From contig NC_057719.1 in NCBI RefSeq assembly GCF_004010195.1, forward strand, positions 37,324,138-37,388,137: a stretch of 64,000 bases of DNA, written 5' to 3'. Each line of letters begins with the position of its first letter. Position 1 is the first letter of the stretch. This document shows positions 26,446-59,242 of the stretch, in pieces. The position numbers were made by a program, and so were the translations under genes. Source of the DNA: Chiloscyllium plagiosum (taxonomy: Eukaryota). The notes beneath the pieces are model-generated. The model saw only the letters and a list, made by a program, of their open reading frames with translations, was not told the DNA's origin and ran no database searches.

Positions 26446-26595
26446 CACTTGACATCATCATTGTGGCCGGTGTAATGTCTCTGAAGTTGTTCCTCTACAT
26501 TGTATAGTACAACCACAGAAGCAATGAAATACACAATCTCACCCGTTGGCAGAAGATAAAGGTTACAACGGCAATCCCGACCTCGATAACCATAA
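26446..26595 (-). CDS. EML1: EML1 exon, 150 nt (YGYRGRDCRCNLYLLPTGEIVYFIASVVVLYNV...GHNDDVKC)
   Basis: U12 branch point TCCTTGAC then tatcag|; donor |gtaagt. Confidence 0.96.
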
Positions 26596-29500
26596 CTGAT
26601 AGACTGGTCAAGGATATTAACTGGAGGAACTGGTGAAGCTTCACAAAGGGCAAGAGAAACCTTAACATTACATTTTCATTATCAAAGTAAAGGACGTAAT
26701 GTTGGTGCCATAAGTATTGGTTATTAAAACTTTGAAAAGCAAGATTGTTTTTTCAATTAATAGCTAAAAGCTGATTGAAATAACTCCACAGAGATCAGTA
26801 ACCCATCACCCAGTCACCCTTTATTTACATGTGGAGAATCCTTGATACTGGTCCAGCTCCATCAGTACCAGCTCTCAGAGTGAACAAGAGCCTCTGATAC
26901 GCCTGTTAAATGTGTCAGCCAGCACTCTCTGATTGGAGCTGTTAATATGGTCCAACCAGGAAAATCATATTCTATGAATTCCAGCAGGCTGACCTCATTA
27001 CAATCACTACATCCCTACACCTGAGAATGAGGATATAGGCTGGTTCTTTTTTTTCTGTAGCTCCTCCTGGGGCGGTTTAGCATCAGGTCAGGTTCCTCCA
27101 CCTCTGCCTCTGATACGGGCAGTATGTAACAAACAGTACTCACCTCTTGTGCCCGGAGGGTCTCGGAAGAAATTAATTCCATCACAGATTCCAAGGTATC
27201 TTCAAGGCATGATGGACAGGGTAAAACCCACAGGCTCCAGAACAGTCAGGAAGGCATTCAAGGAACTGGGTGTGTTTTGCTCCGACACTGTTTGCAAGTC
27301 GGCAGCTTTCAGATGGTCCATGTACTTGTTCAGGAACCTCACACGTACCCAAACTTTATACATCACTGGACCTGACCTCTCATCGAGTATGCCTCTTACC
27401 CATGCAGGGCCATTCCAGTAGTTCCTACACCAAACTTTATCCCCTGAAGAAAAGTGTGTCTCTCGCTTAGTGGAGTCTTATGCCTGGCATTGGCATTCCT
27501 AATGTCATTTTACCCTCTTCCCCATGTCAGGGAAGATCAGATTTAACTTGGTATGGAGTCTTCTCCCCATTAGCAACTCTTGAAGCTGTGCCTGAAGTTG
27601 TATGAGGGGTGGTCTTGTAGTTAAATAGGAACTAGGACAGTTTGGCATCTAGTGAAATGGTAGGCTGGTTCTTTAAGCCTGCCTTCAAAGTTTCGATTGC
27701 TCTTTCTGCCAGACCATTGAGTGATGTATGGCATGGAGTTATCCTGATATGTCAAATGCTACTCGACTTTAGGAAATACTTGAATTTCCTGCTGGTAAAC
27801 AGTGGCCCGGCATCTTGACCAACACTTCCAGAAGTCTGTATTTTGCAAAAGATGCGTGCAGTTTTTCTATCATTGATGAATGAATTTTATGCACCTCCAG
27901 CTACTTTGAGAGGGCAACCACAATGACGAAGAACATTGAGCGCATGAAAGGAGCTGAATAGGTCTGGGGTTTACCCAGCCATTCCCATGAATATGGGGGA
28001 GGTGCTGGCAGTAATTTTTGTCTTTTTTGGCACTCCGAGCACTGCTCTACCAATGCATGTATGTCTGAATCCAATCCTAGCCACCAGACATAACCTCTTG
28101 CCGACACCTTCATTTTGGAAACCCCTGGATGGCCCTGGTGGAGTTAAGCATTATTTAGCAGTGACCTTTGCTCAGGACAATCACTCTTGCTCCCCTTAAT
28201 AATATGCTGTCCACCACTGGTCACTGTGATCTGGTCTTTCTGGGTCGAAAACGGTTTCATTTCTGGATGTGATGGCCCTTTGGTTTCCCCCAACACCATC
28301 AGATGTTTCAGTCTGATATTGTCAGCTGTGACTGGAAGTGTGTCCAAAGAATTTAAAACCATTATGGACTCTTCCATAGTGGTACCACTGCCAGTAGGAG
28401 GCGGCTCACTGCATCCGCATTTGCCGCTGGGCCTCCCAGATGTTGTTCCAATTTGTAAGTATATGCACTATGAGAGCTCACCAATGAGCGGAAGCAATGG
28501 GGAACACTGTCTTCTCTTTATGTAGACGTTAGCAGGGATTTGTTGTCCATTATTATTACAAATTTACATCCAAAAAAGGTATTGGTGGAACTCCCTGACT
28601 CCACATATAACTTCCAAACGTTCCTTCTCTATCTGGGCATTTTACGCTCTGTATTAAGCAAAGTCTTGGACGCATTCACTATTGGGAATTCCTCTCCATT
28701 AGGCCACCTATGAGCTAACATTGCCCTGCTGTACAGGGAGGCATTGCATGTCAATACAGATCTCACTTAGGATCGTAGTGAGCCAACACATTAGAGGATG
28801 ATAGCTGTTTCTTCACTTTCCCGAAAGTTATGGTTTGGCTACATGAACATTTCCAAGACTGACCTTTTTTTAAGAGTTGATACAGAAGTGCCAGGATGGA
28901 AGCCAAGTTATGCATGAGCTTTCTGTAACAATTCACCAGCCCAAGGAAAGACTGAAGCTCCGGTACAGACGTGGAAGCCGGGTCAGCTTTGATCACCCTC
29001 ACTTTATCTTCCAACAGGTGTAACCGAGTCTTGTTTGACTCTGCAGCCCAAGTAGGTCACTTGGGGTGCCAGGGACCCACATTTTCCCTTCTGAAGCATA
29101 CAGCTGTCTGGGAGAAGCATTTAGCAACTATGTACAAGTTCTCTAAGTGCTCCTTATTGCTCTTCCTTATTATTAGCACATCATTCAGGTAAATGGCGAC
29201 CTGGGATAGACCTTGTAAAATTTTGTCTATCATATGCTGAAAAATGGCACAGGCTGACAATACCCCAAATGGCAGTCTGGTATATTGGTACAAACCCTTA
29301 TGAATATTAATTGTAGCATACTTCTGGAAATCCTCATCTAACCACAATTGCAAGTATACATGGCTCACGTCCAGCTTTGTGAATGACAGCCTCCCTGCCA
29401 GCTTTGTATAGATATCCTCTCTGTGAGGGATTGGGTATTTATCCAGCTGCGAAAAGCAGTTTACTGTTTGTTTAAAATCCACACAATGGCAAACCGACTG

Positions 29501-29986
29501 TTCAGGCTTCACAATCTGTGTGACCGGTGCTGCCCATTCTGCAAACTGGACAGGTTTGAGGATTCCTTCGCTCTCCAGCCTTCCGATTTCTTCCTCGACT
29601 TTGCCCATACAGCAAATGGCACTTCGGGAGGTGGGAGGGGGATGGAGCTTTCAGACTCGTGGAATTGCTTCCTGATCAACATGCAAGTTGGCATTGGTTC
29701 CTTTGATAGTCCCTAGACTTTCCCAAAAAATTTCCATGTATGTAACTAGGACTTCACTCAGGCAGCCATTTTGTAACTGAAAACTGTTGAGCCAATCTAG
29801 GTGACTCTTTTACAACCAATTTCACCCCATCAGGCTTGGCTCCAAGCCTTTTACTACAATCAGTGGTAACTGAACCAGCTGCTTCTCAGAAGAGACCAGA
29901 ACTGAAGTTGTTTCCTTTATCTGTAAAGGTTCCCTTGTACAGGTACTCAGTCTAGCTGAGGTTTTGCACAAACCTGAGGGTTGGAG

Positions 29987-42658: not shown

Positions 42659-42788
42659 ACCCAGTCTAGCTTCAGCTTTTTGGCTGCAAGTTCACCTTTA
42701 TCTTCCAAACTGTAGGTTTCCTTAATAACTTGGGGCATATACATGGTGATTGGACGTCCACGCAGGAACATTTTTACATATCCTTCCT
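42659..42788 (-). CDS. EML1: EML1 exon, 130 nt, start of HELP motif (EEGYVKMFLRGRPITMYMP...KLKLDWV)
   Basis: ttttatag| acceptor; U12-type donor |GTATCCTT; overlaps ORF 42628..42819. Confidence 0.96.
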
Positions 42789-43279
42789 CTATAAAAAGGA
42801 CAGAGAATATCATGATCATTTTTTGAACACTTGTATTAGACGTTATGTAGGTAAAATAATATCAGATAAGGAACATTCAGGGGAACAAAGAGGAAAAAAA
42901 TTAAAGTACAGCCAACACCAGTCTTTGATTTAAAATTGTAATTGTCTTTATTATATGAAAGATTTCATACAATATCATTACATGCAGTGAATGTTGCTAA
43001 TGTTAAAAATAATTAGGTAAAATTATACAAAATGCAACAATATGTGACCACATTCCATAAATTCAAAATAGAATCGGTGGCACATGCTATTGAATCAATA
43101 TTATACATGCCAAAACAAAGAATTTAGTGCAGAAAACACAGTGTGCAGAAGAAAGAAAGCATGACATGAGCAAAACCTGACATAGAAATGTGCAGGGCAG
43201 ACACACAGAGAAGAAAATAAAGCAAAACAGGTTTAATTCCTTACAGCCCATCAAATACTTAATTGTAGAAATTAAGGAG

Positions 43280-43566
43280 TTAAAAATAGATCTGGAAGTA
43301 CTGGCTTGGGGGTTTAAGTGGGCTAATCAAACTTGGAGACCTTGACATGGCAGTAGGGCTGATGAGAATCTGACTTGGGCTTTTAGGAAGTGGTAGGGTC
43401 AGAGAAGGTAACTTGTGAGTTCCAAGCATCCCAACAGTTTTAGTGGAGGTTGGTCCAGATTCTTGAAGAGGTGGTTCTTGGTTCGATAGCAAACTAGCTT
43501 GTTCAGCACTGCTGTCAGGAGAATCAGTCAGCTTTGTAGACTGAATCAGCATTATCTGTACCAAAA
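43280..43566 (-). CDS. EML1: Candidate EML1 alternative terminal exon, about 95 aa, Ser/Pro-rich (VLVQIMLIQ...SPLKPPSQYFQIYF*)
   Basis: AG-free pyrimidine-rich tract then catgtag|; phase 1 is in frame with the upstream exons; ORF 43280..43564; AATAAA on the minus strand at 42947-42952. Confidence 0.65.
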
Positions 43567-44840
43567 CTACATGGAATTGTCGTGTACGTATATAGATAGG
43601 AGGATAGAAGTAATAAAATCATTACCAGGTGATCATAACATCTAATGGACACCATATTTAATATCTAATTGTGTTAATGAAGAAAAGTTTTCGTTATTGC
43701 AACATGTTGTTTTACAATCTCTCAGTTACAGAAACACCATTACTACAAACTAAAGGATAAAGATACACAAGCATACACCTCAATTATCTGTCTCTTTTTA
43801 AACAATGTAAGCATTCGTAACTTATTCCAGTTTTCTTATCTCGGTAGCATTTCACTTTAAATTAAAATTGTCATTGTCACAAAACTGCAAAGAACACGCC
43901 CAAAAATTATCCTTTTCACATTTGAGAAAATTGAATGATACTGTGCTGTGAAGATAAGAATACTGAACAGACAGCCAAAGTGCTAGGTCTGTGCAATAGT
44001 GGGAAATGGAAGATAATGAGTCAGCATTCCATTTTACATTCCTCCCAATTTTTATTTTCTTTACCTTCAATCATGATCACATTTCCCCTATCATCCAAAC
44101 TCAGCATTATGTCCACTGCTAACACAAGAAGCTTTAAATTAGACACCACAAAATCAATGGTCACCCAAGCTAAGCTTGTATGTTACTCAATAAATAGGAT
44201 TTGCTACTAAGAGAATGACTATGTTTAGTTTTGGGTTTTGTCTACTAGCATGCATGAGATTTTTGACAAGGTTACTCCTGACTGGGAGTTATGTCTTTTG
44301 TACTAAATTTGGATCAGCTGCTAGAATTTATTTTTAAACATTAGTACATTTTGACAAACTCTCATGCACATCTTACAAACTGACAGTACAGCCTGAAAGG
44401 TGATTATTTTTCAAGGACTAGTGGATTTATGCAAACCTTTCAAAAGCAAGCAACACTACATTACATGTGGCATAGCTCTCTGCACGTCAGTCACATGACT
44501 GAACAAGCCAAATTCAAAGACAACACAGGATCTAGGAGTTCTTCAGGAGATTTATTCATTATTCCACTGACTCCTCCCACTCCCAAGTCTTCCCTCACCC
44601 CCTGAACCTTAGTTGACAAAATAAAAAATGTTCAGGGTGATTATGGCTCCTGTAAAAGTCTGATTAATGCAATTGGAAAGTTTGGTTGCATGAAAAGTGA
44701 TATCCAGATACGAAAGCTTTGCATTTCAAAGAAAATGTAAGCGTGCTTGCAGAAGAGGCTGTGTGTGCATGTGAATGAGACCTGACAGCTAGGAAACAGG
44801 TACGTTCAGAGAGCTAGAATATTGCACAAATGAGACCTAC

Positions 44841-50638: not shown

Positions 50639-50773
50639 CTGTCGCTGGTTTTTTTCCCACTGGAACCACTGCTAGTTGAGCCAGTGCGGGTCCTGCTGTT
50701 CTTTGACTCTCCAAAGCTTTCTCTACGTGCAACAGATGACACTCGCTCAGAAGAGTTGCTTCTCTTCACAGAA
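50639..50773 (-). CDS. EML1: EML1 exon, 135 nt (basic Ser/Arg-rich region: SVKRSNSSERVSSVARRESFGESKNSRTRTGSTSSGSSGKKTSD)
   Basis: aaatgcag| acceptor, |gtaaat donor, open frame, phase 2-2. Confidence 0.92.
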
Positions 50774-59191: not shown

Positions 59192-59242
59192 CTTTTGGCA
59201 GTTTTAGTCAGTTTAGACATACTAGTCAGACACCTTTGCTTT
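59192..59242 (-). CDS. EML1: Candidate EML1 51-nt cassette exon (KQRCLTSMSKLTKTAK)
   Basis: Long U-rich tract + atgtag|, donor AAG|gtgagg; open in phase 2, which is the phase this intron requires. Confidence 0.5.

Follow-up and report, generated by a model that had tools for sequence, protein, structure and literature searches.

The EML1 gene of the shark Chiloscyllium plagiosum contains, in the intron before its HELP exon, a putative alternative last exon, which judging from sequence comparison is almost certainly orthologous to the last exon of the short, TAPE-less EML1 proteins found in bony vertebrates. Orthology to this exon in teleosts, gar and birds implies that the exon predates the split between cartilaginous and bony fishes, as had been proposed conditionally in the original prediction. 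We consider it likely that the exon is spliced in Chiloscyllium. The best explanation, which we hold with moderate confidence, is that it acts as an alternative last exon and gives rise to a short microtubule-binding adaptor that presents a conserved end motif.

The candidate last exon and its host gene

The window, i.e. the whole stretch of DNA analysed here, comprises 64,000 nucleotides (NC_057719.1, positions 37,324,138 to 37,388,137), and the gene is read from its minus strand. The host gene is EML1, since the sole PDB match was the TAPE domain of EML1 (4CI8), exon 2 shows 97-100% identity to the EML1 of sharks and rays, and 11 of the 16 tblastn pieces are 100% identical to the Chiloscyllium model P0304. 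The coiled-coil, HELP and WD exons of the locus are orthologous to EML1, the TAPE exons are intact and the coil is canonical. The upstream exons, which were mapped into the adjacent sequence (G000), measure 67, 183, 130, 135 and 29 nt and are followed by a 27-nt microexon; by the summed exon phases, the frame that starts at the ATG continues into the candidate exon. Alternative first exons and one more optional exon also occur in shark models, and the length of the short form can therefore vary.

The acceptor of the original prediction is present, with the minus-strand sequence CCATGTAG and its AG ending at 43567 and the exon beginning at 43566. The tract in front of it had been described as AG-free and pyrimidine-rich; it is indeed AG-free over 73 nt, but only 50% of the 20 nt before the acceptor are pyrimidines. 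The predicted open frame of about 95 codons was recovered as a split codon and 94 further codons up to a TAA stop, ending in SPLKPPSQYFQIYF, and phase-1 entry works from either the 29-nt exon or the microexon. The encoded peptide is rich in Ser, Pro and Thr as had been stated (S+P+T = 40%), and the other two frames of the exon stop after 4 and 13 codons. A second AG, located 11 nt downstream of the acceptor, would open a phase-1 frame of only 9 codons. Of the 2049 minus-strand YAG sites in the window, 27 open into a phase-1 frame that runs for 94 codons or longer, and at 4 of the 2049 this is accompanied by an AG-free zone that spans 40 nt or more. From this we conclude that the acceptor and frame features by themselves lie within chance, and that it is the homology described below which exceeds it.

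The absence of a donor-like site (at least 7 of 9 consensus positions) between 43566 and 42790 favours a terminal exon over a cassette exon. A poison-cassette reading was rejected for this reason and because the protein end is conserved. The exon was also considered as a duplicate of the HELP exon, which was rejected based on an hhalign probability of 0.1, with the HELP start ranking 5th of 625 windows. Downstream of the stop, the AATAAA that had been placed at a distance of about 330 nt lies 328 nt past the stop, with 159 nt separating it from the HELP-exon acceptor, and an ATTAAA absent from the original prediction is located at 43237-43232. In a background test of poly(A) signals none of the 63 hexamers passed the G/T cut, the candidate AATAAA included, showing that the cut was too strict; an upstream TGTA was present at 22 of the 63.

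Table 1 Features of the EML1 locus around the putative alternative last exon. Positions refer to the window.
Feature	Position	Strand	Basis or remark
Optional 51-nt exon of the basic region	59192..59242	-	
Ser/basic-region exon of the shared N-terminus	50639..50773	-	
29-nt exon (KPKDPLFNA), phase-1 donor	48979-48951	-	Mapped exon
27-nt microexon (G)KRRVMHCK	44867-44841	-	In annotated shark full-length models; precedes the tail directly in most short homologues
3' splice site (TAG) and 73-nt AG-free zone, weak pyrimidine tract	43567..43641	-	
Coding part of the putative alternative last EML1 exon	43283..43566	-	Phase-1 entry, split codon and 94 codons; frame and homology
Conserved exon start V-x-[MVL]-Q-I-x-L	43547..43566	-	5/7 positions fit the bony-vertebrate pattern
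Middle conserved block LPSLTLPLPKSPSQ	43370..43411	-	Nearest to gar and bird
C-terminal motif SPLKPPSQYFQIYF	43283..43324	-	Counterpart of SPxKSPSQYFQICY
TAA stop	43280..43282	-	Homologous proteins also end here
Predicted 3' UTR	42953..43279	-	TGTA at 42982 and 42971
AATAAA, first canonical candidate poly(A) hexamer past the stop	42947..42952	-	
GU/U-rich stretch, candidate downstream element	42890..42921	-	About 100 nt before the HELP-exon acceptor; by inspection
HELP exon, first of the TAPE domain	42659..42788	-	Competing phase-1 acceptor of full-length EML1 at 42788

Further features of the locus concern its other exons and introns. The intron after the HELP exon (42658-26595, minus strand) has the donor GTATCCTT at 42658-42651 and, some 12 nt ahead of its acceptor near 26594, the sequence TCCTTGAC, and is presumably of the U12 type; speculatively, slow minor-intron splicing directly behind the competing HELP exon could favour the short form. 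In a long EML1 intron, fragmented retrotransposon pol-like frames, by eye reverse transcriptase- and integrase-like, were seen at 27200-29650 (minus strand). A 9-codon alternative first exon that is identical to other shark and ray models lies outside the window at about 208.7 kb in window coordinates (L016, G000:C10), and a weak match (E 0.29) to a gar-like ray first exon at about 246.2 kb (L020, G000:C10). The whale shark full-length models P0020 and P0307 end in NQCKLSVR instead of the usual SVMQWKVI, which suggests another alternative or a mispredicted 3' end.

Homology to short EML1 proteins of bony vertebrates

Among the matches listed for the coiled-coil exon were proteins of about 280 aa. 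The zebrafish cDNA AAI24248.1/AAI64638.1 (281 aa; P0073) passes from the microexon into VTVQI... and terminates in SPxKSPSQYFQICY, and the gar model MBN3326265.1 (P0019, 283 aa) shows the same succession of N-terminus, microexon, tail and stop. The run from microexon to tail with the SPxKSPSQYFQICY end recurs in an Astyanax model (P0033) and in one Logan protein, and the bird models XP_009956842.1, XP_009977378.1 and XP_010146353.1 (P0135, P0237, P0238) likewise comprise N-terminus, microexon, tail and stop. A search with the gar tail returned 267 proteins, of which 120 were listed; all 120 of these carry the SQYFQICY end, none has the HELP start, and in 111 the microexon HC[KRQ] precedes the tail, counts which cover the best 120 of 267 and are biased towards constancy by a query that held both microexon and motif. 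By contrast, the microexon was found in 23 of 75 full-length proteins. The named sources of the tail matches are teleosts, gar and one bird, with two further birds from a separate listing; a 'Mustela' label on one match was discounted, since the sequence sits in a tilapia cluster.

Pairwise blastp comparisons of the shark exon with short EML1 tails gave E values of 6e-11 and 8e-16. When the shark peptide was searched against 1.84 billion proteins with phmmer (index-free), 3 matches were obtained, all of them short-EML1 tails (best E 7.6e-9). We further used a tail profile based on 111 bony-vertebrate tails, which were nearly all from teleosts and ranked by gar likeness, with 9 rows lacking the anchor dropped. 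Among 8302 six-frame peptides, this profile recovered the candidate frame with an E value of 1.3e-14, the next best peptide having an E value of 2.3, and the score of 53.3 bits was reached by none of 2000 shuffles (maximum 9.8 bits). The likeness to teleost short eml1 isoforms on which the original prediction depended was thus found by blastp, phmmer and profile, and the suggested comparison of C-terminal motifs yielded both a counterpart of the motif and a homologous exon. One of the phmmer matches, P0310 (CAB1330576.1, Coregonus), is a model in which the tail is spliced into the HELP exon just before its stop, which is probably a prediction error and less likely a genuine read-through form.

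Both exon ends, the length (95 codons in the shark vs 85-98 in the 111 homologues), the preceding microexon and the stop position match the short EML1 homologues. The shark tail is identical to the bird tail at 44 of 83 positions, to the gar tail at 39 of 87 and to teleost tails at 27-33 of 82-91; gar and bird share 36 of 80, so that the identities of the shark to bird and gar are at least as high. Thus, the shark form would resemble the short EML1 of zebrafish, gar and birds in its N-terminal exons, microexon, start and end motifs, similar length and lack of HELP and WD parts, but differs from them at four positions that are invariant in 111 of 111 tails, namely T2 of the exon (L in the shark), the S of KSP (KPP) and the last two residues (QIYF for QICY), leaving 6 of 8 residues of SQYFQICY identical. 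These changes could be lineage-specific or reflect relaxed selection. An unconstrained intron would not be expected to retain the homology of the tail since the split between cartilaginous and bony fishes.

Several searches gave no further relatives. No cartilaginous-fish protein with the tail was present among the 120 listed of the 267 gar-tail matches or among the three phmmer matches, the tail was absent from 19 shark and ray models (18 long, one 380-aa partial), and no mammalian tail protein was among the matches listed. A word-index search with the shark exon produced nothing among 100 candidates, Atlas feature searches with the shark exon and the zebrafish tail gave no usable match (structure matches with TM ≤ 0.32), none of four window-frame peptides was present in the protein collection by exact look-up, and of 580 pattern matches from a metagenome scan for relatives none was confirmed. 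Three other HELP exons, which belong to EML paralogues, are present in G000, and no tail was detected in the 40 kb that precede each of them, where the best E values among 9467 peptides were 1.6 and 0.82; one stretch (C45) reaches the coiled-coil exon and the other two may be incompletely covered. The tail therefore appears to be EML1-specific among the four EML loci checked.

Isoforms and short-only genes in teleosts

Short proteins of two types occur in teleosts. Some are isoforms of the full-length gene, whereas others, about 300 aa long, form a clade of their own that evolves rapidly and has a different N-terminus, a distinction that the original prediction had missed. Among 213 stored motif-ended proteins, the coil is of the canonical EML1 type in 10 and divergent in 173, and 30 fit neither pattern. 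The canonical coil is found in 88 of 89 full-length proteins and the divergent one in none of them, although the latter absence is weak, since resemblance to the shark coil was the criterion by which the 89 had been selected. A tree was calculated from the shared N-terminal part of 31 selected rows. In it, the short forms of gar, Astyanax and zebrafish each group with a full-length protein from their own species or a congener, at a distance of 0-0.02 changes per column, which would be expected if both are products of a single gene. On one side of a branch with support 89/95 lie 12 of the 31 rows, all from teleosts, with a long eel row whose placement is unsure.

The RefSeq isoforms listed for the teleost short-only loci are all short. 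These teleost-wide eml1-like genes of about 300 aa (P0121-P0236 and cluster members), which are often labelled as uncharacterized LOC or EML4-like, seem to encode only the short form. We infer that the clade represents a duplicate that kept only the short form, with the teleost genome duplication as its probable origin. Most of the short-only copies have an acidic first exon; when 264 kb of the shark locus were searched with a profile of this acidic N-terminus, no counterpart was detected, the best match having an E value of 1.2. Members of the clade (e.g. XP_019118779.1, XP_041815100.1, XP_014000239.1) resemble the shark form in coiled coil, microexon and tail motifs; they differ in their faster evolution, the divergent coil and the exclusively short isoforms listed, whereas the shark gene has TAPE exons. 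The shark exon belongs to the arrangement in which the short form is an isoform of the full-length gene, without the traits of the short-only clade.

Predicted product, possible partner and relation to CNG-modulin

Based on the mapped exons, the predicted product comprises 276 aa, 285 aa with the microexon and 302 aa with the further optional 51-nt exon, close to the 280-300 aa originally estimated. Again as proposed, it would retain the coiled coil and the basic region but lack TAPE, and it would end in a disordered tail. AlphaFold modelling of the gar protein P0019 (90 sequences) gave one confident helix (residues 34-77) with the rest unstructured (pTM 0.24), providing no support for a folded tail domain. 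Splicing of the alternative last exon after the microexon would lead to an EML1 of 276-302 residues without the propeller domain, presumably a microtubule-binding trimer with three unstructured tails and conserved motifs at their start and end. The constancy of the end motif within a variable disordered tail suggests that it most likely binds a partner, to which the three-chain adaptor would present it. The S-P-x-K beside the end motif presumably fits a proline-directed kinase site, and we take the terminal I-x-aromatic to fit a hydrophobic C-terminal ligand; the shark keeps both patterns despite its residue changes. The ratio of short to long form would be set by the acceptor at 43566 and cleavage after 42947 in competition with the HELP acceptor at 42788, a choice probably made in neural tissue. 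That short EML1 acts as such a motif-based adaptor seems to us somewhat better than an even bet.

According to PMC4761370, the trimerisation domain and basic region are sufficient for microtubule association, while TAPE binds soluble tubulin; accordingly, a protein without TAPE should still bind to the lattice but no longer to tubulin. Full-length EML1 (TAPE domain in 4CI8) shares the trimerisation domain and basic region with the shark short form, which would have a disordered tail in place of TAPE. The TAPE-less EML4-ALK variant 3 resembles it in trimerisation domain and basic region (PMC4761370).

Alternatively, the exon might be used to lower or antagonise full-length EML1 through early polyadenylation and mixed coiled-coil assembly, with a tail that has neither an outside partner nor a CNG role. 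The coiled-coil exon is common to both forms, so that mixed trimers are possible (for trimerisation see PMC4761370), conservation is low in the middle of the tail, and mouse Eml1 mutants are reported to show migration defects with unchanged sensitivity (PMC8861151). However, truncation alone needs no motif that is conserved letter for letter, as it is in 120 of the 120 listed matches, and the teleost clade with only short RefSeq isoforms listed still keeps it, and we thus regard this use as improbable. Even less credit can be given to an ancient coding exon that is decaying in the shark lineage, being homologous and open without now giving a useful protein. The four substitutions at invariant positions, the lack of an annotated cartilaginous-fish isoform among the matches listed or the 19 shark and ray models, and the weakness of the acceptor, which is followed after 11 nt by an AG that is out of frame, are in line with decay, but tissue-restricted terminal exons are easily missed by annotation, and there is no damage to the acceptor, the reading frame, the position of the stop or the poly(A) hexamer. 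Moreover, the identities between shark and bird and between shark and gar equal or exceed that between gar and bird, and at the two altered terminal positions the residues are still aromatic or hydrophobic, with the I at position -2 retained. An intronic frame that is open by chance, to which the four comparable AG sites of the window and the lack of a usable Atlas match might point, is refuted by the tail profile search and by library-wide homology at the orthologous position and phase, and its probability is negligible.

For the adaptor reading, the leading candidate partner is the cone CNG channel, which we name tentatively. The CNG channel modulator CNG-modulin has a length of 301 aa, which fits a TAPE-less protein and matches the teleost short-only clade better than the 281-aa isoform. 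No record named CNG-modulin or derived from striped bass was among the matches listed; we infer that CNG-modulin shares the short-EML1 tail. In striped bass, CNG-modulin has been described as a member of the EML1 family that modulates cone CNG channels in a Ca-dependent manner; in zebrafish it is encoded by eml1 (PMC8370914, PMC5877610, PMC8861151). If its Ca site is located in the acidic N-terminus of the short-only proteins, the shark form would have the tail in common with CNG-modulin but would lack its Ca sensor. It is conceivable, though doubtful, that short EML1 is the ancestral CNG-modulin of jawed vertebrates, with the end motif as channel-binding site, an alternative last exon coupled to the microexon, a teleost duplicate that is short-only, and mammals that either lost the exon or carry it unannotated.

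Poria et al. (PMC8861151) called the normal rod and cone sensitivity of mouse Eml1 mutants, which show migration defects, surprising and described the CNG-binding site as unknown. For the mouse alleles in intron 22 and exon 18, normal sensitivity or affected lamination is reported (PMC8861151; PMC7101416). These alleles are located far downstream and would spare an isoform that ends before the HELP exon; if short EML1 is indeed the ancestral CNG-modulin, loss or missing annotation of the exon in mammals would explain the normal cone sensitivity of mouse TAPE-region mutants. The 'short' mouse Eml1 forms of 783 and 800 aa, which differ only at the first exon (PMC7101416), are distinct from the TAPE-less isoform. 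Bamboo sharks have an LWS cone pigment (PMC11886822). A term search found no mention of EML1 in the available text of Lamb and Hunt's paper on the evolution of Ca feedback (PMC6170504), and the accessible parts of PMC6025728 and PMC9694239 added nothing on isoforms.

The short EML1 form of bony vertebrates is already contained in sequence databases and its kind is not new; what is added here is a member from a cartilaginous fish, the age that follows from it and the distinction between isoform and duplicate. No paper on an alternative last exon, the microexon or the motifs of EML1 was found, although Korenbrot 2013 or supplementary tables may cover the zebrafish isoform. With the candidate shark exon, the origin of TAPE-less EML1 would go back as far as the ancestor shared by all jawed vertebrates, and the exon marks the short end motif as the part under the strongest constraint and as a concrete candidate for the CNG-binding site. 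The puzzle of the mouse phenotype may be resolved either by alleles that spare the short isoform or by an absence of the exon from mammals, none of which were among the matches listed. Finally, the teleost short-only clade would represent a clear case of a splice isoform that became a gene of its own after duplication.
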